Positions 2 to 55,733 of a stretch of 64,000 bases of DNA are shown one piece after another; the first letter of the stretch is position 1; each line of letters opens with the position of its first letter. The notes under the pieces were generated by a model, which ran no database searches, was not told where the DNA came from, and saw only the letters and a program-made list of their open reading frames with translations. Source of the DNA: a virus; the IMG/VR virus record IMGVR_UViG_3300022602_000038, positions 64,001-128,000 of that record. One strand, given 5' to 3'. The position numbers and the translations under genes are program-made.

Positions 2-1936
2 GCTTATACTTCAAGCTCTTCACCTGTAACAGCTGCATATCAATATAACGGTAGTTCGGTGTATTCAGCATTACGTACTCCAATCGGTCAAGGTGTAAGT
101 GGTACATCAGGTTATTCTGGTTATAGCGGTTTAGGATTATCAGGTTACTCAGGCATATCTGGTTATAGTGGTATTTCAGGGTACTCCGGTTACAGTGGTA
201 TAAGTGGTTACTCAGGTATTTCTGGTTACAGTGGTATAAGTGGGTATTCCGGTATATCAGGATATTCAGGTTATAGTGGTTGGTCCGGTATAAGTGGTTA
301 TTCTGGTATTTCTGGTTACAGCGGTTGGTCAGGTATATCAGGTTACTCTGGTATATCAGGCTATAGTGGCTACTCTGGTATTTCCGGCTACTCCGGTATA
401 AGCGGTTACTCCGGTTACTCTGGTATTTCAGGATACTCAGGCATATCAGGTTATAGCGGTTATTCTGGTTGGTCTGGCTTAAGTGGTTATTCTGGTACTT
501 CAGGTTACAGTGGCTACTCTGGTATATCAGGTTATAGCGGTATCAGTGGTTACTCTGGTATTTCTGGTTACTCTAGCTTCAGCGGTTACAGCGGTATTAG
601 CGGTTATTCAGGCTATAGCGGTTCTGGAGTATCTGGCTATAGTGGTTCTGGAGTATCTGGCTACTCTGGTTTTTCAGGCTATTCTGGTTATTCTGGTACT
701 AACGGTACAATTGGGTCAAATGGTGCGTCTGGTTACTCTGGTATAAGTGGCTACTCAGGTATTTCTGGATACAGCGGTTATTCAGGTCAATCAGGTTTTA
801 GTGGTGTTTCAGGTTGGTCTGGTTGGTCCGGTATATCAGGTTACTCCGGTGCTACTGGAGCAACCGGTTCAACTGGAGCAACTGGTACGTCTGGTTACTC
901 TGGTTATAGTGGTGCAACTGGTTCAAACGGTGCAACCGGTACATCAGGTTATTCCGGTTTCAGTGGCGCTAATGGTTCAACCGGGGCAACTGGTACGTCT
1001 GGTTACTCAGGTTTCAGTGGCGCTAATGGTTCAACCGGGGCAACTGGTACGTCTGGTTACTCAGGTTTTTCAGGTCAGACAGGTGCATCTGGTACTTCTG
1101 GTTGGTCAGGGTTTAGCGGTCCTGGAGCAAACCAATCATTAAACACATCAAATTCTGTCACGTTTGCTGGCATGACCCTTAATGGTAATTTGTATTTACC
1201 TGGTGTGTGGCAAACATTTGCAGACTCTAATAGAGATGCAGGTGCATCTATATATTACCCGAACTCTTATACAAACGCTGTTAGATGGGCTTTCGCAAAT
1301 GCTAGCACTACAGGTACAGGTGGTAATTATGCCGGGGTTTTAAACTTTCATCCGTGGGACGGTACTACAAGTAGTACCGGTGATGCATCATATCAAATGG
1401 TGTTTGGTAGTACCGCTTCAAACGGTAGTGGTTATCCAAAACTAAACGTAAGAAAAGGTATTGATACAACTTGGAACTCTTGGTATACAATTGCTTTATA
1501 TGGTGTACCTAACAGTGGTAATCTATATGCAGGTGTTTACTACGATAATAGTAATACAGGCTATTATGTACAACCAAGTAGTACTTCAAATATATATAAT
1601 TTAACTGTAAACGGTACAACTAACTTACCTGGCGGTTCATATGTAAATACCAGCGGTGACTTTTTAGCACGTCGTAGTAGTGGTAGTACTGGTGTATATT
1701 ACTTTGTAGATACTAGCCATTATCTATACTGGGATGGTTCTAATTATAATTTACAAGGAGGAAGTTATCTCAGTACATCAGGTGGTTTATATCCAGGTGG
1801 TGCAATATACGATCAAAACGGCTCTGCTGGATCTAATGGACAAGTACTAACTTCTACAGGTTCAAGGGTTTTATGGTCTGCCGGTGGTGGAAGCGCTACT
1901 AAATCCACAGGTATAGCTTTGATTTTTGGTCGTTAA
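2..1936 (+). CDS. Tail fibre-like protein with long (Ser-Gly-X) triplet repeat; 5'-truncated
   Basis: Frame is open from position 2, so the true start lies upstream of the window. About 340 aa of SGY/SGI/SGW/TGA triplets, then a Tyr/Asn/Gly-rich fibre-like domain ending in 'TGIALIFG', resembling a C-terminal motif seen in phage fibre proteins. Confidence 0.75.
   Translation, partial: AYTSSSSPVTAAYQYNGSSVYSALRTPIGQGVSGTSGYSGYSGLGLSGYSGISGYSGISGYSGYSGISGYSGISGYSGISGYSGISGYSGYSGWSGISGYSGISGYSGWSGISGYSGISGYSGYSGISGYSGISGYSGYSGISGYSGISGYSGYSGWSGLSGYSGTSGYSGYSGISGYSGISGYSGISGYSSFSGYSGISGYSGYSGSGVSGYSGSGVSGYSGFSGYSGYSGTNGTIGSNGASGYSGISGYSGISGYSGYSGQSGFSGVSGWSGWSGISGYSGATGATGSTGATGTSGYSGYSGATGSNGATGTSGYSGFSGANGSTGATGTSGYSGFSGANGSTGATGTSGYSGFSGQTGASGTSGWSGFSGPGANQSLNTSNSVTFAGMTLNGNLYLPGVWQTFADSNRDAGASIYYPNSYTNAVRWAFANASTTGTGGNYAGVLNFHPWDGTTSSTGDASYQMVFGSTASNGSGYPKLNVRKGIDTTWNSWYTIALYGVPNSGNLYAGVYYDNSNTGYYVQPSSTSNIYNLTVNGTTNLPGGSYVNTSGDFLARRSSGSTGVYYFVDTSHYLYWDGSNYNLQGGSYLSTSGGLYPGGAIYDQNGSAGSNGQVLTSTGSRVLWSAGGGSATKSTGIALIFGR
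956..1063 (+). repeat. Two exact 54-bp tandem copies within the fibre repeat (GFSGANGSTGATGTSGYS x2)
   Basis: ggtttcagtggcgctaatggttcaaccggggcaactggtacgtctggttactca at 956-1009 and 1010-1063. Confidence 0.9.
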
Positions 1937-1940
1937 ACCA

Positions 1941-1946
1941 TAAATA
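1941..1946 (+). promoter_or_regulatory. Putative late promoter TAAATA
   Basis: TAAATA 9 nt before ATG 1956; the motif recurs before many structural genes. Confidence 0.55.
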
Positions 1947-1955
1947 TAATCACAT

Positions 1956-2318
1956 ATGTCAAATCCAAATATTGCAGGCCTAACGTACATATACGGCAAT
2001 ACGGCAGTCACTTCAAGTATTTCAACTTCAGCTCCTGGTTCTAACGTTGCAGGTGCAGTTCCTTCTAACACTGTTTGGAAAGTAGCTTCTGTTACAGCGG
2101 CTAACAAAACAACCTCTACTGTAAATTGTAGCTTAATATTTTATAGATCAAGTACTTCCTACTACATTGCATATCAAATTGCAGTACCTGGTAATGCTTC
2201 TATCGTTCTAGTTGGTAAAGACTCAATGATATATATGAACGAAGGTGATTATTTATATGCTTATGCTTCAACCGGTACAGCAATTGACGTAACTGTATCT
2301 TACGAAGCGATTTCTTAA
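1956..2318 (+). CDS. Small beta-rich virion/tail-fibre-associated protein
   Basis: 'MSNPNI..LT.IYG' N-terminus, of the type that follows fibre genes; beta-strand-like composition. Confidence 0.55.
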   Translation: MSNPNIAGLTYIYGNTAVTSSISTSAPGSNVAGAVPSNTVWKVASVTAANKTTSTVNCSLIFYRSSTSYYIAYQIAVPGNASIVLVGKDSMIYMNEGDYLYAYASTGTAIDVTVSYEAIS

Positions 2319-2342
2319 TTATACTTAATAATTAATTAAAAA

Positions 2343-3287
2343 ATGATTATTAACGGTCAAATACGTGGTATATATAACATTCCTCAGAGCGGTGGCGGTG
2401 GTACTGCTAAAGGTATATGGGATAATATGGATGTGTATAGAGATAAGAGAAAGGGTATGTGGCCGACACCTTCAGTAACACAAACTGTTACACCTACTGT
2501 AACCCCTCCTCCATATGCTGCTATATATTATGATTCAGGTACATTTACTGTACCAAGTGGTGTTTATTCAATAACATCAGTGGCTGTTGGTGGTGGTGGT
2601 GGTGGTGGAGTTAGAGGTGGTGGTGGAGGTGCAGGCGCGTATAGTCTCGCATATGCTGGTTACTATGGTGTAAACCCTGGTCAAAATATTTCAATAGTAG
2701 TAGGTGGTGGTGGCGGAGGTGCTTTCGTTGCCGGAGATGGAGATAACCACGCTGGTCCAGGTGGTCAGTCTCATGTAAACAATTGGCACACTAGTGGTAA
2801 TGGTGGTGGTCATGGTTATGATGGTGCAAATGGATTTGGTTCAGGTAACGGTGGAGGCGGTGCACATGGCGGTGGAGGCGGTGCAGGTGGGTATTTCGGT
2901 CAAGGCGGACATGGCGGAGACGGTGGAGATGGAGACGGGGTAGGCAATACTGGCGCTGCTGGTTATGACGGAGCGGCTGGTGGCGGTGGCGGCGGTGGTT
3001 CTTCTTATCAAGGTGGTGGTGGTGGTGGTGGTGTAGGCTTAGATGGACATTTAACAGACAGTAATTACACCGGTGGAGCACCTGGCGGTCAAGGCAATGC
3101 TCAACAAGGCTTTGGCGGTGGTGGAGGTGGCAACGGTTCAGACTATGGTAAAGACTGCTGTCCAGGTGGTGGAGGTTCAGGCGGTACAAACGATAGTTTT
3201 ACCGGCGGTGGCGGTGGTGGAGGTGGCGGAGTAAGATTGTTATTTAACTCTTCCGGTAGACCAGCCTATCCAAACGCAAACCCTTAA
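2343..3287 (+). CDS. Glycine-rich tail adhesin-like protein, copy 1
   Basis: 'SGTFTVPSGVYSITSVAVGGGGGG...GGGGVRL' Gly-rich domain; short Pro/Thr linker. Confidence 0.7.
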   Translation: MIINGQIRGIYNIPQSGGGGTAKGIWDNMDVYRDKRKGMWPTPSVTQTVTPTVTPPPYAAIYYDSGTFTVPSGVYSITSVAVGGGGGGGVRGGGGGAGAYSLAYAGYYGVNPGQNISIVVGGGGGGAFVAGDGDNHAGPGGQSHVNNWHTSGNGGGHGYDGANGFGSGNGGGGAHGGGGGAGGYFGQGGHGGDGGDGDGVGNTGAAGYDGAAGGGGGGGSSYQGGGGGGGVGLDGHLTDSNYTGGAPGGQGNAQQGFGGGGGGNGSDYGKDCCPGGGGSGGTNDSFTGGGGGGGGGVRLLFNSSGRPAYPNANP

Positions 3288-3291
3288 ACAA
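2528..3291 (+). repeat. 764-bp direct repeat, copy 1 (copy 2 at 4300-5063)
   Basis: Colinear with offset 1772; near-identical. Confidence 0.95.
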
Positions 3292-3334
3292 TAAAATTTA
3301 ACAATAAAATTTAACAACAAATTAACAATAAATA
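3287..3334 (+). repeat. Short intergenic tandem repeat (aacaataaaattt-like, ~4 units) ending in TAAATA
   Basis: aaacaataaaatttaacaataaaatttaacaacaaattaacaataaata. Confidence 0.7.
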
Positions 3335-3341
3335 TTAAATT

Positions 3342-4067
3342 ATGGCAACATTTGCATTAGTAGATGATCACAATATAGTACGACAAGTGGTTAAAGTACC
3401 GGACCATCAACAACATAGAGGTCATGAATTTTTGTCTCAAGATCTAGGTATTGTTGGAGGTAAATGGATACAAACTAGTTTTAACACCCACGACGGTAAA
3501 CATTTCTCCTCAACAATTAAAGATCCAAGAACTGGTAATTTTATACCAGATGGTGGTACTCCGATACGGCATACATACGCTTCAATAGGTTTTCATTACG
3601 ATCCAGTTCTAGACATATTTTACCCACCTAAACCCTACCCCTCCTGGGTAAGAAGAGCAAATGGTACTGGTTGGGAACCACCAATACCTATGCCTACCCC
3701 GTCGATAAAGACAACAGGTATTGATCCAGGATGGCTTTGGTCTGAAACAGATCAAACATGGTATAGAGGTACATGGCAAGGTTACTTACATCCATCTCGT
3801 CATCCTATAAAGATGGCACCTACACCGTCTATTACTCCTTCTATAGGTTCCACACCAACTCCAACTTCTTCAAACAACGTAATACCAACACCGTCTCCAA
3901 GTCCTACTATATCTCTTACTCCATCATTCGGTACAACCCCTACTCCTACCCCAACACCATCTTTTACACCTTTTAGTACTCCAACTCCAACTACTACGAT
4001 TGGATTTACGCCAACCCCTAGTGTTACTTTTAGCCCAACACCAACCCCTAGCTTTCCATCGTCTTAA
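3342..4067 (+). CDS. Tail-fibre-associated conserved phage protein with C-terminal Pro/Thr/Ser mucin-like tail
   Basis: 'MATFALVD..NIV', 'WIQTSFN', 'YDP..D.FYPPKPYPSW' motifs typical of proteins next to Gly-rich tail genes; last ~80 aa are PTPS/PTPT repeats. Confidence 0.6.
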   Translation: MATFALVDDHNIVRQVVKVPDHQQHRGHEFLSQDLGIVGGKWIQTSFNTHDGKHFSSTIKDPRTGNFIPDGGTPIRHTYASIGFHYDPVLDIFYPPKPYPSWVRRANGTGWEPPIPMPTPSIKTTGIDPGWLWSETDQTWYRGTWQGYLHPSRHPIKMAPTPSITPSIGSTPTPTSSNNVIPTPSPSPTISLTPSFGTTPTPTPTPSFTPFSTPTPTTTIGFTPTPSVTFSPTPTPSFPSS

Positions 4068-33237: not shown

Positions 33238-34458
33238 TTACACATTTACAAATTTAGTCAAATCTATTTGATAACCTTTTATATATTCATCAATTACAAA
33301 ATCATTCATTTTCCAAAAAGATGTGGTTGGTTTACCGTTTATAACAGTATTAACAGCCCAACTTTTAAATCTATTACAGTTATTTAGTCTGTTTAAAGCA
33401 GCTGGTTTAGCATATTCCCAAAAAGAACTTTTAATATTATTAGGACCTGCGTAGTTGATTGCTAATAACGATTGTATTGCTTCAATATTGTTTACATACC
33501 ATTCGTTTATTGCTAATGTAAGTCTACTATAATCTTCACTCCAATTTAATCTTAATATATAATCAGTCACGTTTTGCATTACATTTGTATAAAAATGTAA
33601 AGGTAAGGACATATGTGGCTCAAAAAAATGAAGTTTATTACCTAAATACAATATTCTATTATCCATTGCATTTTTTTTATAATATTGTTCCCAAGAAAAC
33701 CGTCTTAACTTAGAAGCATCAATATTTTTTATTTTTGAAAAATGTTCAATTGCTTCTTCTTCGCTTGTGATATTATTATTATAAAGATATCCCCAAGTTG
33801 TTCTATGTTGTAATGGTATACTAAACATCCACCCGTTTTTATGTACGTAAGCTCCTGTAAAGTTAAATTTATCTAAATTTTCTTTAATTTCAGGATAAAG
33901 AATTACAGAATTTACAACTTTAAAATCAGGAAACAGATATTCTTTAGAATTTAACTCTTCAGGGGTTGGAGTGCCCATACAATCTATTACAAAATCGTAG
34001 TTATATTTATCTTTAACACCAAAAACTGTCGCCGATCTTTCATCTTGCTTTATATCAATAACAGTGTCATGTATTTCTTTAAAATTATTATATAAAGCAG
34101 TTAATCTTTTTAAAGTAAATTTACTAAAAGTGTCGCTATTAAAATTTATACCAGGTGCACTACGTACAATAAAATTTTTGCCATTTGCTTCTTCCCAAAA
34201 ATATCTAACACTCCATTTAGTCGTACAATCTAATTCCGCACCTTCAGTTACTATATCAAAATTTAAAGCATGATAAAGCAGCTCGTAAATTAAAGATGTA
34301 CTTGTCTCTCCAACTTGTACTGGTGTAATGTTAGGATCGTGTATACAATGCACCTCTAAATTTTTTACTAATTTTTGTTTGGATTTTTTTAAAACTGCAA
34401 AAATTTGCAATAAAGCTATAGCACTTGCAGTGCCGTTACCGATTATACAAATTTTCAT
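33238..34458 (-). CDS. Flavin-dependent halogenase-like protein (short type)
   Basis: 'IIGNGTAS', 'VGETS', 'GWMFSIPL', 'GN...FFEP'. Confidence 0.75.
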   Translation of the reverse strand: MKICIIGNGTASAIALLQIFAVLKKSKQKLVKNLEVHCIHDPNITPVQVGETSTSLIYELLYHALNFDIVTEGAELDCTTKWSVRYFWEEANGKNFIVRSAPGINFNSDTFSKFTLKRLTALYNNFKEIHDTVIDIKQDERSATVFGVKDKYNYDFVIDCMGTPTPEELNSKEYLFPDFKVVNSVILYPEIKENLDKFNFTGAYVHKNGWMFSIPLQHRTTWGYLYNNNITSEEEAIEHFSKIKNIDASKLRRFSWEQYYKKNAMDNRILYLGNKLHFFEPHMSLPLHFYTNVMQNVTDYILRLNWSEDYSRLTLAINEWYVNNIEAIQSLLAINYAGPNNIKSSFWEYAKPAALNRLNNCNRFKSWAVNTVINGKPTTSFWKMNDFVIDEYIKGYQIDLTKFVNV

Positions 34459-34459
34459 T

Positions 34460-35644
34460 TTAACAAAAGTCTTTTGGTTCTAGTTTGTACCCATCAAAAT
34501 AATCTTTTAATATGCTTTCTGGGTGAGACCAATAAGAGCTTACTATACCGTCCTTATTTTCCAAACACCATAATTTAAAAATTATAGAGCTATTTAATCT
34601 TTTTCGAGATTTTTCTAATGCATAATCCCAAAAAGGGCTTTTGATATTGTTAAGACCTGCGTAATTAATAGCAACCATATCTTGTAATTCTTCTACACTA
34701 CGCATGTGAAATTGATTCACCTTTAAAGAAATAGACTTAGGGTCAGGGTTATTAAAAACCTCTCCAGTAAAAAACATTAACACGTTACCATAATAATGCA
34801 GTGGCATTGCCTGGTGCGGTTCAAAAAAATACAACCTATTACCCAAGTATAATATTCTATTATCCATTGCAAGCTTTTTATAGTATTGTTTCCAAGTGAG
34901 TTTTCTTAACTTAGAAGTATCAATATCTCTTATTTCTGAAAAATGTTTAATTGCTTCTTCTTCACTTGTAATGGTATTGTTATAAAGATACCCCCAAGTT
35001 TTTCTAGTAGTCAAAGGAATACCAAACATCCATCCGTTTTTATGTACATATGCGGAAGTGTATAGCTCGTCTGTTTTTATAGGCTCTGGGTATGCTATTA
35101 CTGAATTTACAGAAACCCAATCTGGTGCTTTATAATCTTTATTTGTTTCCACGTTAGGTGGTGTACCTCTACAATCTATTATATAATCATATTTATATGT
35201 ATTTTTTTCGCAAGATACATATACATTAGAACCATCTTGAGTAATATTTGTTACGTTATCTTTTATCTTTACAAAGTTATTGAATTTTTTTTCAACTTCA
35301 TCTATTACATAAAAACTGAATTTTTCACTATTTATATGAAATCCAGGCTCATTATGGCGTACTGTAAAATTATTACCATTTGCCTCTTCCCAGAAATACT
35401 TTGCACACCATTTAAGTGTACCATCAAACTTTGGTGCATCTCTTAATATGTCATAGTCTAAAACATTAAAGAGCGCTTTATTAACTAATCTTGAAGTGCT
35501 TTCTCCAACTTGAGTGGTAGAAATGTTAGGGTTATATATACAATGAATTTCAGCGTTTTTTAGTTTATTGAGTTTAATTTTTTCAAACAACCACAATAAA
35601 GAAAAAGCCCCTGCTGTACCTGCTCCTATTACACATATTCTCAT
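34460..35644 (-). CDS. Flavin-dependent halogenase-like protein (short type, paralog)
   Basis: 'GAGTAG', 'VGEST', 'GWMFGIPL', 'GNRLYFFEP'. Confidence 0.8.
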   Translation of the reverse strand: MRICVIGAGTAGAFSLLWLFEKIKLNKLKNAEIHCIYNPNISTTQVGESTSRLVNKALFNVLDYDILRDAPKFDGTLKWCAKYFWEEANGNNFTVRHNEPGFHINSEKFSFYVIDEVEKKFNNFVKIKDNVTNITQDGSNVYVSCEKNTYKYDYIIDCRGTPPNVETNKDYKAPDWVSVNSVIAYPEPIKTDELYTSAYVHKNGWMFGIPLTTRKTWGYLYNNTITSEEEAIKHFSEIRDIDTSKLRKLTWKQYYKKLAMDNRILYLGNRLYFFEPHQAMPLHYYGNVLMFFTGEVFNNPDPKSISLKVNQFHMRSVEELQDMVAINYAGLNNIKSPFWDYALEKSRKRLNSSIIFKLWCLENKDGIVSSYWSHPESILKDYFDGYKLEPKDFC

Positions 35645-35732: not shown

Positions 35733-35918
35733 TTAAAAGAGATGTTGATGAGGTGCTGAAATAGCTTCTTTCCAAACTATTACTGCTTTACCCCACATCT
35801 TTTTAATACTTTCAACGAACTTTAACTTTGTCTTACTGTTACCTATCTTATAGTCCTCGTATGCGAGTCTAACAAGACCACCAACAGCAAGATAACTTGT
35901 TATGATTATTGCTTGCAT
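35733..35918 (-). CDS. Small protein with N-terminal hydrophobic segment and structured 5' leader
   Basis: 61 aa; own TAAATA near 35992-35997 and a downstream hairpin. Confidence 0.55.
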   Translation of the reverse strand: MQAIIITSYLAVGGLVRLAYEDYKIGNSKTKLKFVESIKKMWGKAVIVWKEAISAPHQHLF

Positions 35919-36063
35919 ATGTGTTGTTTTGTTGAGAACCGCAGCCCGGAGGCTTTGGTTGTTGTGCTAGATGTTGTCACTAGCACAAATATTTACTCAA
36001 GATTTTCCTATAACAATAAAAATATCCATAGGAATAAACTATCACTTCTATTTGGATGATAAA

Positions 36064-36139
<76 letters not shown>

Positions 36140-36171
36140 TAAATTTGTAATACATTTACAAATATGCAAAA

Positions 36172-36256
36172 TGGTGGGTACACTTGGACTCGAACCAAGG
36201 AAGCTGTGAAGCAGCAGATTTACAGTCTGCCGTAATTGCCGCTATACGATATACCC
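36172..36256 (-). tRNA. tRNA-Tyr (GUA), long variable arm, CCA encoded
   Basis: GGGTATATCGTATAGCGGCAATTACGGCAGACTGTAAATCTGCTGCTTCACAGCTTCCTTGGTTCGAGTCCAAGTGTACCCACCA. Confidence 0.92.
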
Positions 36257-36268
36257 AAAAAAAATGTA

Positions 36269-36372
36269 ACGGCTATAGGTTGCAAGCTCGAGTGCCAATT
36301 CGTTGATACCGTAAACAGAAAGGTGAAAAAAGTTTACATCCTTGATCCCTATAGTGTCACCTTAACAGCCGT
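36269..36372. ncRNA. Candidate structured ncRNA between tmRNA and tRNA-Tyr
   Basis: Paired termini ACGGCTGT/ATAGCCGT, hairpin GTAAAC/GTTTAC, extra complementarities AAGGTGA/TCACCTT and CTATAGG/CCTATAG; bounded by T-runs like its neighbours. Confidence 0.5.
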
Positions 36373-36376
36373 AAAA

Positions 36377-36759
36377 TGGTGGACCTGAGGGGAGTTGCAC
36401 CCCTGTGTTCCGTAACGTTCTTACCAGTTTCTACAAGCTTAGCACTATTATTAAAGTGTATACCCATAGTGCTGATATACAAGTTGTTTGGTAGTGTTCC
36501 TGCTATTCTACTACCATTGAACAGTCAGTCTCGCTGAATGACGATTACAATATATAGCGAGAATCTATACTATAACCGATCGAGCTTAAGCAGCTGCGAG
36601 TGCGAAGCTTTCGCTGAATGAAAGAGATTCTTTCACAGAAGCGACTGCGTTCTTGAGGCTTTGAATAATGCCGGTTGTTTTTGTAGTAATTTATAAAGGA
36701 TTTACTAATCCTGCTTGCTTCTAATACATCTGCCACAGAGTCGAATCTGGTACAGGCCC
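36377..36759 (-). ncRNA. ssrA: tmRNA
   Basis: 5' GGGCCTGTACCAGATTCGAC; 3' GGGGTGCAACTCCCCTCAGGTCCACCA; G3-U70 pair; tag frame 36672-36586 ending FALAAA-stop. Confidence 0.95.
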
Positions 36760-36803
36760 ATTAAAATATGTTAAAGAACAGTAAGTAATATAATATATTT
36801 ACA

Positions 36804-37217
36804 ATGAATAGCAACTTAAAAGTACTATCAGAACAATATCAATTAATGATTGAAAAACGCGTTCAACCTGATCCAACTACAGAAGAATCTCTTATACAGT
36901 TTTTAGATAAAAGAGCTGCAGGAGCTGCTAAGATTGCACACAGTGCTAAGGAAAAAGGCGGTTTTAGTACATTAACCGCTATTCACTTTGCAGCAAAAGC
37001 TAAACCTTATGCAGAGTGTGAAAAAATGGAAAACGCTCCTAATAAAGATTGCGATAGAGCCAACGCTCATTATAAGAAAAAAGCTGAAGAGTTACACACA
37101 AAACTAGCAGATTTAGATAAACTAACTCAAAAAGAGTTTCAAGCTCTTATGGGTGAGTTAGAAGTTTACGGGGAAGTCTATATACGCGCTACAAAGCCAA
37201 ACAGCTTAAAGATTTAA
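36804..37217 (+). CDS. Hypothetical protein, possible internal head protein
   Basis: 'LSEQY.L.IE' N-terminus; TAAGTA upstream. Confidence 0.6.
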   Translation: MNSNLKVLSEQYQLMIEKRVQPDPTTEESLIQFLDKRAAGAAKIAHSAKEKGGFSTLTAIHFAAKAKPYAECEKMENAPNKDCDRANAHYKKKAEELHTKLADLDKLTQKEFQALMGELEVYGEVYIRATKPNSLKI

Positions 37218-37627
37218 AAAGTAAATTCGTAATCTTTAGCGTATTTTGTATTTTTAGTTTGCTTATTTTTTAGTTCTCTTACTCTTAAGCATAAGCTTTG
37301 TTTTGTATTTTTTAATACATTGAGCGGTATATTATAAAACATATCTGTATCTGGGCAATACACAATAAACAAATCAACGTTCTTGTCACTGTACACAATA
37401 CGGGTTTTACTTTTATTGTTTTGTTGTTTGATTTTACTAATGCCTTTTATTGTACCATCAACAAGTTTACGCGATTTAATCTGTACCCGTTTATAAGAAT
37501 TATTATATCTCACGAGGAGATCGTGTTGTAAGCCGCTGTTAATAACGTTACAAACTTCTATATTATTTTTAATACATAGAAGTATAAATTTTTGTTCAGC
37601 AATATCTCCAATAACTCTTCGATCCAT
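37214..37627 (-). CDS. PD-(D/E)XK endonuclease, group I intron/tRNA-associated type (free-standing homing-endonuclease-like)
   Basis: 'GDIAE', 'DLLV', 'RVQIKS', 'Y....VD.F.VY......Y.IP'. Confidence 0.8.
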   Translation of the reverse strand: MDRRVIGDIAEQKFILLCIKNNIEVCNVINSGLQHDLLVRYNNSYKRVQIKSRKLVDGTIKGISKIKQQNNKSKTRIVYSDKNVDLFIVYCPDTDMFYNIPLNVLKNTKQSLCLRVRELKNKQTKNTKYAKDYEFTF

Positions 37628-37632
37628 ACTAT

Positions 37633-39219
37633 TTAATATCTTTCAGAAAGATAAGAAAGAAGTGTTTTGTGATTGATTAAAGATGATCTTACAAGTTGAA
37701 TATTTTTTATATATTTTTGTAATTGAGCTTTATATCTTATTTTTCTAATACCTATATTAAATGAGTCAAAAGCTTCTTTTGCTTTTTGACAGTCATAAAA
37801 ATTAATACCTGTACCTACTTGCAACCAACTGTCTATAGTAAAGTATATATTATTTATACCACTCTCTGTTACGTTAGATAATATTAATGCGTCGTTATTA
37901 TCAAGAAGTTTTTGTACCATTTCAGGTGCTTTATTATTTGTATTAAAATTTGCCCAAAAAGGTGTATCCGTTCTTTCAGTTAAATAATGAAAATAGATGA
38001 AATTTAAAATCTCTTGATTTAGTTTTAATACAGAATCGTTGTAGGATTTCATTTGATACGGGTCAGAGAATATTAAACCTCTTATATGTTGAGAAAAATA
38101 TCTTAAAGACGATATGGTAACCCATATAGATGTAGCTTCAAGTGGTTCTATAAAACCAGCTGCAAGCCCAATAGCGACACAGTTTTTTATCCAGGGGGTT
38201 TCGTATTGACCAGCTTCAAATGTGAACTGCCTGTTTATAACCGTATCTGTTCCTGTATATTCATCAATTTCTTTTTTAATACTCTCGTCATCAATCTGAT
38301 TACTATCAAATACATACCCGCACCCATATCTATCCTGTAAAGGTATTTTCCACATCCAACCATATTTCATAGCTATAGCTTCTGTGTATGGTGGTATTTC
38401 ACCATTTTTAATTGGTGAAAAAAACGTCATACTTTTATTTACAGGTAAATATTCTTTATAACTTTTCCAGTTATTATTAAAAAAATCCCCTATAATTTTA
38501 CGTTTAAAACCTGAACAATCAAAGACAAAATCACACCTTATTGTAGGGTCTGCATTTATTAATGTTAAAGAAGTTATATTACCTTCTTTATCGGTATTTA
38601 TTTTACTTACCGTGCTTTCAATTACTTTAATATTTCTTGCTTTACCTACAAATTTTAAAAAATCTGCAAGCATAACTGCATTAAAATGTAATGCATATGG
38701 TCCTAAGATATCAAAATGATATGTATTATCTTGAGTTTTGTTTTCAATATTACTGCTTACTACGAATTTTGTTGTGTAATCTTCACAAGTAATATATGTA
38801 AGGTCTATTTTATTTAAAGGCTCTCTGTTTGCTATTCTTTCTAAAGCTTCTAATGATAATATACTTTGACCTATAGTTGTATTTTGATTATAATTTACAC
38901 TATAATTATCTGTACTGAATCCGTGATAGTAATATTTATTATCGCCGTTCCAGTTGGTAAATTTAATACCGTTTTTTATAGTACCACCAGCGTGCTTTAC
39001 AATATCACTTGCTGAAATGTTTAACTCTTGTAAAAAATTTACTAAATGTGGTGTTGAACCTTCTCCGGCTCCTAGAATTCCTATTTCAGAGCTTTCTATA
39101 AGCGTTATACTTACATTTGGGTATTCTTTACGTAAAAATAAAGCTGTCAACCAGCCTGATGTACCACCTCCAACTACTACAAATTTGTAATCTTTACTGT
39201 CAAGGTTATTAAAGGCCAT
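37633..39219 (-). CDS. Tryptophan halogenase-family flavin-dependent halogenase (full-length)
   Basis: 'GGGTSGW', 'GAGEGS', 'IKNGIKF.NW' (catalytic Lys position), 'FDCSGF', 'GWMWKIPL' (WxWxIP), 'GF.EPLEATSI'. Confidence 0.92.
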   Translation of the reverse strand: MAFNNLDSKDYKFVVVGGGTSGWLTALFLRKEYPNVSITLIESSEIGILGAGEGSTPHLVNFLQELNISASDIVKHAGGTIKNGIKFTNWNGDNKYYYHGFSTDNYSVNYNQNTTIGQSILSLEALERIANREPLNKIDLTYITCEDYTTKFVVSSNIENKTQDNTYHFDILGPYALHFNAVMLADFLKFVGKARNIKVIESTVSKINTDKEGNITSLTLINADPTIRCDFVFDCSGFKRKIIGDFFNNNWKSYKEYLPVNKSMTFFSPIKNGEIPPYTEAIAMKYGWMWKIPLQDRYGCGYVFDSNQIDDESIKKEIDEYTGTDTVINRQFTFEAGQYETPWIKNCVAIGLAAGFIEPLEATSIWVTISSLRYFSQHIRGLIFSDPYQMKSYNDSVLKLNQEILNFIYFHYLTERTDTPFWANFNTNNKAPEMVQKLLDNNDALILSNVTESGINNIYFTIDSWLQVGTGINFYDCQKAKEAFDSFNIGIRKIRYKAQLQKYIKNIQLVRSSLINHKTLLSYLSERY

Positions 39220-54806: not shown

Positions 54807-55733
54807 TTATTGACGAGGAAATTTATGATAAAGAGCTTTAGGATTAACTAAATTACTATCCAATAAATCTTTGTGAGATGCTCTAGTAGGTACAATATCC
54901 CAACCGCCACGACGAGCGTAAAAACATGTTACTAAAAGCTCTTGTGGTTCTAGTAAGTCCCAAAGACGCTTATAAGCGGCTTCGCAAATTTCTTCATGAA
55001 AATGGCACTCATTACGTAATGAAACAACCCATTCAAGTAAAGAATTTTCGTTGACTGCTTTATTCCCTTTATAATAGATATAAATGTCTCCGGAATCTGG
55101 CTGCTTGGTGATCTTACAATTAGAACGTAAAAGAGAGCTCATATAATGACCCTCTACAGTACCTACTGATTTATTATTAATTTTTAATAAATCTGGTGTT
55201 TCGTTAAACACTGTAAATTTAAGCTTTTCTGCTTTAGGTATATTTTCAAGTACGGTCCAACCATAAGGTTCTTCAGTATTATATACATCAAAGAGTCTAT
55301 TATCAAAATGTTCTTTACTCAGTAATTGAGAGAACAGTTCTACCTTTACATTCGTTTCAAGTAATAAAGAAAGGTCCTTCTCTGCTGTCTTTTTAATGTT
55401 CTTAAGTACTTGAGCACTGGTTTTACCCATATGCTGCATATTAAATGAATTCCAGTAAAGTTTCATTGATTTAGATTCTACAATGAAATCATTTGTACAA
55501 GGATATACTACTTTTGCAACACAAGTAACAGGCAAGCCTTTATCTGTTAATGCACTACATTCATAGCCGTTCCAAATATCATAACCTACAAACGGTAGGT
55601 CTTTATTCTTAAGATCGAGGTACGTACGATTGCGTTGACGTTCTTCTCGAACCAATATTTCAGGTGTATAAGTAGTTGGAGAATCTACTCTTTGTCCAAG
55701 TACTTTGTCAATATTATTAGTGTTATAGCTCAT
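54807..55733 (-). CDS. queF: NADPH-dependent preQ0 reductase QueF (bimodular)
   Basis: 'D.WNGYECS.L', 'ESKSMKLY' QueF motif, 'LRSNC.IT.QPD', 'FHEE..E', 'Y.RRGG.DI'. Confidence 0.93.
   Translation of the reverse strand: MSYNTNNIDKVLGQRVDSPTTYTPEILVREERQRNRTYLDLKNKDLPFVGYDIWNGYECSALTDKGLPVTCVAKVVYPCTNDFIVESKSMKLYWNSFNMQHMGKTSAQVLKNIKKTAEKDLSLLLETNVKVELFSQLLSKEHFDNRLFDVYNTEEPYGWTVLENIPKAEKLKFTVFNETPDLLKINNKSVGTVEGHYMSSLLRSNCKITKQPDSGDIYIYYKGNKAVNENSLLEWVVSLRNECHFHEEICEAAYKRLWDLLEPQELLVTCFYARRGGWDIVPTRASHKDLLDSNLVNPKALYHKFPRQ

Follow-up and report, generated by a model that had tools for sequence, protein, structure and literature searches.

An Atu_At1-family (RF02496) RNA beside the tmRNA of an uncultured myovirus and its relatives in Alphaproteobacteria

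Locus and RNA family

We analysed a stretch of 64,000 nucleotides of viral DNA (positions 64,001 to 128,000 of IMG/VR record IMGVR_UViG_3300022602_000038, hereafter the window) and, within it, a 104-nt element on the minus strand that lies between a transfer-messenger RNA (tmRNA) and tRNA-Tyr. Read on this strand, the order is tmRNA, UUUU, the 104-nt element, UACA plus a run of eight uridines (U8), tRNA-Tyr, and tRNA-Met. The tmRNA ends in ...UCCACCA (also given as ...GGUCCACCA) at position 36377, the UUUU spacer occupies 36376-36373, and the element, ACGGCUGUUAAGGUGAC...CCUAUAGCCGU, runs from 36372 to 36269. A first-pass annotation, made by a model from the sequence alone, had described this element as an unannotated structured RNA with competing folds and a pseudoknot. 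All pairings that it named exist (ACGGCUGU/AUAGCCGU, AGGU/ACCU, GUAAAC/GUUUAC with UCACCUU in the loop, AAGGUGA with that loop, and CUAUAGG/CCUAUAG), its 4-nt spacing after the tmRNA CCA and its U8 run downstream can both be read in the sequence, and the element is richer in G+C (43%) than the window (34%). A scan with our covariance model R1, which was built from 68 homologues, found a single copy in the window.

Scanning the whole window with cmscan matched the element to Rfam family RF02496 (Atu_At1, 'Rhizobiales sRNA') at 63.3 bits, above the family's gathering score of 60 (E 3.7e-08). The match covers model positions 1-108 of 108 and window positions 36269-36376 on the minus strand. Model R1 scored the window copy at 91.5 bits (E 6.5e-27). 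The RF02496 model and the window have GGGAU, a U-rich P4 loop, and CAACGAAnUGGCAnnCGAGC in common, and at the positions aligned to the conserved family core CAACGaAauGGcAggCGagC and the U-rich P4 loop the window has CAACGAAUUGGCACUCGAGC and UUUUUUCACCUUUCU, respectively. The Rfam consensus AAcCGGa/UCCGgUU aligns with AAGGUGA/UCACCUU of the window, which was the first hint that the proposed pseudoknot covaries. We are almost certain that the element is a phage-borne member of the catalogued family RF02496 and has the fold described below. The label 'unannotated' was correct in that no annotation of the window existed, but the element is covered over its full length by RF02496. It does not represent a new class of RNA: the Rfam scan suggested in the first-pass annotation found a known family, an outcome that the annotation itself had named as removing the novelty.

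At E≤1, none of the 4227 Rfam families scanned placed a ribozyme over the element, including hammerhead, twister, twister-sister, pistol, hatchet, and hepatitis delta virus (HDV)-like ribozymes, and no Y-RNA family was found in 36000-36800. A literature search under the name 'Atu_At1' returned nothing. Rfam names the family after Rhizobiales, but it also reaches Sphingomonadales, Rhodobacterales, and many uncultured phages. Of the 16 phage homologues that were tested, six scored under the Rfam gathering score and would therefore be missed by routine Rfam annotation at that cut-off.

Conserved fold

The folding energy of the window copy is unremarkable, with a minimum free energy of -22.6 kcal/mol (z -0.59) and 56 of 200 shuffled sequences folding equally well. 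Support for a discrete structured small RNA, as first proposed, derives from the comparison of homologues. All covariation counts refer to alignment A2, which holds 68 non-redundant phage and bacterial sequences. The conserved fold, composed of helices P1, P3a, P3b, P4, and P5 and the pseudoknot, has 91.3% of its cells paired vs 67% in shuffles, with a covariation score of 0.664 vs 0.21. Both-side changes occur in 28 of the 32 pairs. Sliding the 3' partners by 1-3 columns as a control reduced pairing from 91% to 35-51%.

The RNA is compact (~105-120 nt). It is closed by stem P1, from which a bipartite stem P3a/P3b, parted by a GAU/CAA internal loop, leads to a three-way junction with the hairpins P4 and P5. 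P1, P3a, P3b, and P4 are each 82-98% paired, with both-side changes at nearly every pair; P1 measures 5 bp in the window vs ~12-14 bp in bacterial copies. The 7-bp pseudoknot between the P1-P3 strand and the P4 loop is 98.7% paired with compensatory changes in 7/7 pairs, as illustrated by the variants AACCGGA/UCCGGUU, AAGCCAC/GUGGCUU, AGUACAG/CUGUACU, and others among the homologues. At the 5' nucleotides of this pseudoknot, Rfam draws a nested 4-bp P2 hairpin that is weak, being mostly G.U and 78% paired. Judging by the strong covariation, the pseudoknot, which the Rfam consensus does not include, takes the place of P2. Hardly any variation is seen between Rhizobium and AT-rich phages in the P5 loop and the junction next to it, CAACGAAnUGGCAGnCGAGC. 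Conservation of the core CAACGAAUUGGCACUCGAGC carries an ascertainment bias, as its positions were fixed by the search pattern, and it is near-unchanged in pattern-independent covariance model hits too.

The covariation test suggested in the first-pass annotation therefore supports four helices as well as the pseudoknot, and it does not support the proposed switch between competing folds. The long terminal helix, listed first in that annotation and used by the minimum free energy structure, is peculiar to the window sequence: it is not conserved past P1, and AGGU/ACCU is unpaired in 48-65 of the 68 sequences. The supposed alternative CUAUAGG/CCUAUAG is the conserved P3a. A single conserved fold gives no comparative support for a switch. 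The strand, about which the annotation was in doubt, is settled as minus by frequent G-U pairs (A-C mismatches on the other strand), promoter orientation, and rapid amplification of cDNA ends (RACE) in Agrobacterium fabrum C58.

Table 1. Positions of the RNA, its structural parts, and the adjoining features in the window
Feature	Position	Strand	Evidence or remark
Whole RF02496 (Atu_At1-family) RNA	36269..36376	-	Rfam match; structured core 36269-36372
P1 5' strand ACGGC, pairs with 36269-36273 (GCCGU)	36368..36372	-	5/5 pairs with both-side changes
Pseudoknot 5' strand AAGGUGA in the P1-P3 junction, pairs with 36320-36326	36357..36363	-	Covariation
P3a 5' strand UAUAGG, pairs with 36274-36279 (CCUAUA)	36348..36353	-	6/6 pairs with both-side changes
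P3b 5' strand CAAG, pairs with 36283-36286 (CUUG)	36341..36344	-	97.8% paired; both-side changes 3/4
P4 hairpin UGUAAAC...GUUUACG with pseudoknot loop	36310..36338	-	7/7 pairs with both-side changes; main 6-pair run 94% paired
Pseudoknot 3' strand UCACCUU inside the 15-nt P4 loop	36320..36326	-	Flanked by conserved U5 and UCU
Near-invariant core CAACGAAUUGGCACUCGAGC: P5 hairpin loop, J5/3, first base of P3b 3' strand	36286..36305	-	Upper-case in Rfam consensus
Phage tmRNA, directly upstream of the element	36377..36759	-	Rfam RF00023, 68.8 bits; CCA end 4 nt before P1
3' spacer UACA + U8 between RNA and tRNA-Tyr	36257..36268	-	Sequence
tRNA-Tyr (GTA)	36172..36256	-	ARAGORN and Rfam
tRNA-Met (CAT)	36064..36139	-	ARAGORN and Rfam
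Candidate sigma-70-type promoter TTGCTA-16-TATATT	36787..36814	-	Consensus scan; ~25 nt upstream of tmRNA

Homologues in phages and bacteria

The core pattern CAACGAANTGGCANNCGAGC matched 71 IMG/VR contigs, on which we identified 61 clear homologues (43 distinct sequences) and ten coding-region accidents. The 61 homologues form ~7 sequence groups with differing gene neighbourhoods. The order tmRNA-then-RNA recurs in the sister phages L004 and L008, and L002 has the same ...ACCAUUUU CCA-UUUU junction, with no tmRNA there reaching the Rfam gathering score. tRNAs follow the RNA in the window and L004 only, and in an ARAGORN analysis of 52 homologous loci the window-like clade was the only one with tRNAs close to the RNA, which rules out the general association with tRNA clusters implied by the first-pass annotation. 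For this phage itself, co-transcription with the tmRNA and tRNAs and subsequent excision by processing, as that annotation had proposed, is the most likely expression mode, as suggested by the 4-nt and 12-nt spacers, the absence of a terminator-like hairpin in 35900-37300, a promoter-like site located only upstream of the tmRNA, and the junction recurring in sister phages.

Other phage groups carry the RNA in different settings. The group-A copies (~20 contigs) each have a -10 element of the sigma-70 type (TATACT or TACAAT) 6-8 nt before P1, and a TTGACA-N17-TAACAT promoter abuts the 3' end of the RNA, followed by a small KGKE-rich open reading frame (ORF), terS, and terL. Group-A contigs (L007, L012, L013, L016, L019, L024, etc.) also have a ACATACACACG(T) motif ~60-80 nt upstream of the RNA that repeats just after the TTGACA-N17-TAACAT promoter and may be a phage-specific promoter or operator. 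In further groups, the RNA is located after an endolysin or DNA-binding protein gene, or antisense between genes of small helix-turn-helix (HTH) regulators and DUF6321 proteins. Clustering of the flanking proteins revealed no conserved phage neighbour, but lineage-specific terS/terL, endolysin, ribonucleotide reductase, small HTH regulators, and DUF6321 proteins.

The source record of the window has a size of 140.7 kb and an estimated completeness of 65%. It derives from a myovirus that encodes tail sheath, tape measure, DnaB-like helicase, and SbcC. The tmRNA (36377-36759, minus strand) was found by Rfam and not reported by ARAGORN. Three ORFs of the tryptophan halogenase family (33238-34458, 34460-35644, and 37633-39219, all on the minus strand) flank the tmRNA/RNA/tRNA cluster, and a PD-(D/E)XK endonuclease ORF is located at 37214-37627.

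A genome search with the same core preceded by TTTC matched at least 120 genome contigs, with about 111 (at least 111) true copies. Genomic copies among the matches listed are nearly all from Alphaproteobacteria, namely Rhizobiaceae, Phyllobacteriaceae, Devosia, Sphingomonas/Sphingopyxis, Cereibacter, Frigidibacter, and Roseinatronobacter. The sole match among them from outside this class is a well-formed AT-rich copy in a Candidatus Gracilibacteria metagenome-assembled genome (L169:5650-5769, minus strand), which may be a mis-binned phage or a true extension of the host range. In addition, 95 plasmid records matched, including pAt of A. fabrum C58 at 55166-55269 (minus strand). The RNA is patchily distributed, being present in 13 of 41 Rhizobiaceae genomes (1-4 copies each, some of them decayed) and in none of 150 evenly sampled Alphaproteobacteria genomes, a screen of limited sensitivity because only 24 candidates were scored per genome. 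Within this limit, the contrast between class and family rules out a housekeeping RNA of Alphaproteobacteria. Several diverged and partly decayed copies with broken P1 or P3 were observed in genome G194 (L208, L210, and L211, within ~100 kb) and in Cereibacter (L201); such multi-copy genomes suggest duplication and loss, as in accessory or mobile genes.

The promoter and neighbour counts that follow refer to the about 111 genomic loci among the matches listed. A GGAAC-N15-18-(C/G)GTT motif is present at a fixed upstream distance in 54/111 loci under strict and 79/111 under relaxed criteria, with chance expectations of 0.26 and 1.7, respectively. GGAAC starts 44-46 nt before the reference point, and the -10 part ends ~8-10 nt before the extended P1. 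Promoters of the alphaproteobacterial EcfG/RpoE2 general stress response have the known consensus GGAAC-N16-17-CGTT. From these motifs, the bacterial RF02496 RNA appears to belong to the EcfG general-stress regulon. Control by LexA/SOS was ruled out, as the LexA box GTTC-N7-GTTC was found in none of 110 upstream regions. No EcfG-type promoter was recognised at the phage copy, which is preceded by the tmRNA and whose only upstream promoter-like site is of the sigma-70 type.

Expression data are available for the homologue of A. fabrum C58, small RNA (sRNA) pAT_55271R on plasmid pAt, which extends from 55271 to 55154 according to 5'/3' RACE (PMC3738593). It has a size of 118 nt by RNA-seq and ~140 nt by Northern blot, and its reads per kilobase per million (RPKM) rose from 45 in log phase to 866 in stationary phase and reached 3597 in AB medium, with the signal kept after terminator exonuclease (TEX) treatment (PMC3738593). 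Abundance, ends, and TEX resistance identify it as a primary transcript that accumulates under stress. This RNA (Atu_At1/pAT_55271R; Wilms et al. 2012; Lee et al. 2013, PMC3738593) and the window copy share family, helices, invariant core, and size class, but the window copy is phage-encoded, AT-rich, and part of a tmRNA/tRNA unit instead of lying behind an EcfG promoter.

The immediate neighbours of the bacterial RNA are very diverse (95 clusters, 75 of them singletons), and the gene downstream shares the strand of the RNA in 40 loci and is opposed to it in 46, a split more in keeping with a stand-alone gene than with a leader. The commonest Rhizobium context is between a divergent gltX and a convergent CitMHS transporter gene. 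DNA repair genes recur: ligD is directly downstream on the same strand in C58 pAt (starting 44 nt on, with a small hairpin and short U-tract in between), R. rhizogenes pTi, R. lusitanum, and Neorhizobium; ku-ligD is downstream in Cereibacter and xth in Sinorhizobium sp. B11; an MPG glycosylase gene is upstream in seven loci and RecQ downstream in three. Further neighbours are DJ-1/PfpI, SDR, GFA, TerC, Hsp20, imuAB-dnaE2, and a PNPOx-like gene. Of all these, ligD, ku, xth, MPG, RecQ, Hsp20, DJ-1/PfpI, and the PNPOx-like gene are of kinds typical of general stress or repair. S. meliloti ku3-ku4 and ligD4 are under RpoE2 control (PMC6379672). We read the adjacency to repair genes as joint membership of the general-stress regulon, with a shared promoter at some loci; the enrichment, for which related genomes were counted separately, is suggestive, not proven. 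On pAtCFBP6626b (L213:7163-7252), only the first 30 codons of ligD, 96.7% identical to C58 LigD, are present downstream of the RNA; here the RNA has been kept and the neighbouring ligD lost. At the Shinella locus, rsr (opposite strand) is followed by rtcR, the RNA, and a PNPOx-like gene, and UdgX is close by. The rsr of Shinella plasmid L215 is a Ro60-like gene (vWA_Ro60/TROVE, annotated as hypothetical; 64-1620, minus strand) divergent from rtcR (1831-3438, plus strand), and the RF02496 RNA directly follows rtcR, with UdgX and a DNA-repair radical-SAM gene farther out.

Putative function

Based on these observations, we propose the following putative mechanism. Transcription from a promoter upstream of the tmRNA would yield a tmRNA-RNA-tRNA-Tyr-tRNA-Met precursor, from which host nucleases that process tRNA and tmRNA ends would release the RNA. 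The RNA would then act in trans as a rigid pseudoknotted scaffold that presents its invariant hairpin and junction for recognition by a conserved factor of the host, which is most likely a protein. Phages in which a sigma-70-type promoter or stable-RNA operon drives expression of the RNA would supply or block a branch of the host general stress response without EcfG activation. We lean slightly towards this explanation as a whole, from family and fold through stress promoter, co-transcription, and trans-acting factor binding to phage subversion. The factor-binding mechanism, taken by itself, we advance tentatively and with more doubt than belief.

Several known systems resemble the RF02496 RNAs in part. 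GsrN and GsrN-like RNAs (Tien et al. 2018, PMC5869019; ReC64 of R. etli, PMC3892343) are likewise alphaproteobacterial, ~100 nt long, and behind general-stress promoters of the EcfG type. GsrN, which depends on sigma-T/EcfG, works through a C-rich loop and is usually located by the ecfG-nepR-phyR locus, whereas RF02496 has no C-rich loop, is sited elsewhere, is pseudoknotted, occurs in phages, and has no sequence or structure similarity to GsrN; location and the missing C-rich loop rule out identity of the two. The small stable RNAs rnaC and rnaD (species 1 and 2) of T4 are encoded in, and co-transcribed with, a myovirus tRNA cluster. They share this setting with the window RNA and are not homologous to it, as R1 with filters off gave its best score in T4 68000-76000 (10.9 bits, E 0.12) off rnaC/rnaD. 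Bacterial Y RNAs (YrlA/YrlB and Yrn1, bound by Ro60/Rsr; Chen et al. 2014, PMC4201824) are, like RF02496, stress-linked RNAs of ~100-130 nt with paired ends in bacteria and phages. Both have a CGAA motif, and one Shinella copy of RF02496 lies 1.9 kb from an rsr-rtcR pair. Unlike YrlA-type Y RNAs, which are expected within ~4 kb of a Ro60/TROVE gene on its strand, RF02496 lacks a tRNA-like T-arm/D-arm domain and is not on the rsr strand, and its P5 loop AACGAAUU differs from the T-loop GUUCGAAUC. The Y-RNA reading, prompted by the Shinella locus, was ruled out by the missing tRNA-like domain together with the Ro60 survey reported next.

A number of points weigh against the proposed mechanism. 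No binding partner emerged from checks of Ro60 and Ku: TROVE/Ro60 (PF05731) is absent from five of five RNA-bearing genomes (with a positive Deinococcus control), and Ku is absent from one RNA-bearing genome (G002) and from the phage record. As ku or ligD is found within an 8-kb stretch in only ~3/111 chromosomal loci as well, an obligatory Ku/LigD partner is ruled out. The EcfG link is drawn from promoter motifs and the expression in one species, and expression as a discrete small RNA is known for the C58 member alone, the phage copy being known from sequence. Around the tmRNA there are four sigma-70-type sites vs 3.8 in shuffled sequence, so that the promoter proposed upstream of it does not stand out from chance. 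That a cognate pathway exists in the host of this phage is an assumption; the phage DNA polymerase is only ~30% identical to the enzymes of cyanophages, pelagiphages, and Sinorhizobium T4-like phages. Blastn with the window copy and a GC-rich copy as queries (E≤1) found no match in 50,697 GenBank phage records, a search in which a 20-nt exact core should have scored and diverged copies could escape; there is consequently no cultured phage for testing. Finally, the invariant single-stranded segments would fit a base-pairing seed or a ligand pocket as well.

The last point leads to a rival reading as an antisense RNA, which remains substantial. In this case, RF02496 would be a base-pairing regulatory sRNA with the invariant P5 loop or junction (AACGAAnU, AGnCGAG) as seed for a conserved mRNA or stable-RNA target, and the pseudoknotted body would stabilise and present the seed. 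A stand-alone, stress-induced gene, as found for GsrN and other EcfG- or RpoS-dependent sRNAs, and the presence of conserved unpaired stretches agree with this. We nevertheless consider it unlikely, as ~30 near-invariant nucleotides in junctions, together with a pseudoknot, are unusual for Hfq-type sRNAs, the conserved unit is without an intrinsic terminator or U-tail, and for 'seeds' to be identical between GC-rich rhizobia and AT-rich phages, the target would have to be just as universal, and no such target was identified. The conservation pattern (invariant junctions, pseudoknot, no terminator tail) favours an RNA that functions through its tertiary structure over a classic seed-pairing sRNA. 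The first-pass annotation also listed a new ribozyme among the possible identities of the element. Self-cleavage or other catalysis could aid processing of the tmRNA-tRNA precursor, analogous to HDV-like theta and other self-cleaving ribozymes by phage tRNAs, which are likewise compact, pseudoknotted, and beside tRNA-type genes; the many invariant junction nucleotides, the position abutting the tmRNA 3' end, and the scattered occurrence in varied phage contexts, as known for twister, hammerhead, and hatchet ribozymes, can be viewed in this light. Catalysis is, in our view, very improbable, because no Rfam ribozyme family matched, the tmRNA/tRNA adjacency is confined to one phage clade and most homologues are away from tRNAs, and bacterial P1 helices are long and fully paired without a conserved cleavage-site feature. 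The C58 RNA, moreover, accumulates as an intact 118-140-nt primary transcript with a TEX-resistant, and hence primary, 5' end and no sign of internal cleavage (PMC3738593).

We regard a role in cis as equally improbable, in which the RNA would be a leader or riboswitch responding to a stress-related ligand and regulating the gene after it (ligD, ku, or xth in bacteria, packaging genes in phages). The architecture is aptamer-like, and at least five independent contexts have a co-oriented ligD, ku-ligD, or xth 23-90 nt downstream of the RNA; the hairpin and U-tract before C58 ligD may be added to these points. Against such a role, the downstream gene is as often on the opposite strand as on that of the RNA, the commonest Rhizobium context is the gltX/CitMHS site, group-A phages have a separate promoter between the RNA and the next gene, a tRNA follows the RNA in the window, and there is no conserved expression platform. 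The preQ1 link raised in the first-pass annotation is not supported either. Covariation is blind to whether pairing is intra- or intermolecular, and the loop-junction complementarity could in principle join different molecules into dimers or rings that serve as a scaffold, as in the packaging RNA (pRNA) of phi29. The topologies are alike, with a 5'/3' helix and a mutually complementary junction strand and hairpin loop, and in one phage group terS/terL come shortly after the RNA. The terminases of these phages are ordinary, though, the chromosomal copies are under stress promoters unrelated to packaging, and an intramolecular pseudoknot is sterically plausible as estimated from helix lengths, so that we give this reading hardly any credence. 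Overall, there is no evidence for a ribozyme, riboswitch, or Y RNA.

Returning to the preferred reading of a trans-acting, factor-binding RNA, a broader version of it would regard RF02496 not as a usual antisense sRNA but as an unrecognised class of tertiary-structured effector RNA (protein-binding, ligand-binding, or catalytic) of the alphaproteobacterial general stress response. This class would have physical as well as regulatory links to the repair of DNA ends and bases (ligD, ku, xth, MPG, RecQ). After its capture by several unrelated phage lineages, they would now express it constitutively to manipulate the host pathway. We offer this generalisation as a speculation that is rather unlikely to hold in full.

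Our analysis adds to the catalogued family RF02496 a covarying pseudoknot, apparent membership of the EcfG regulon, adjacency to genes of non-homologous end joining and other repair, and a wide spread in uncultured phages. Its presence in the model organisms Agrobacterium C58, Rhizobium, and Cereibacter makes the function of the RNA directly testable. If the proposed explanation is true, the presence of a host stress RNA in many phage lineages would offer a clear example of a regulatory RNA gene borne by phages.

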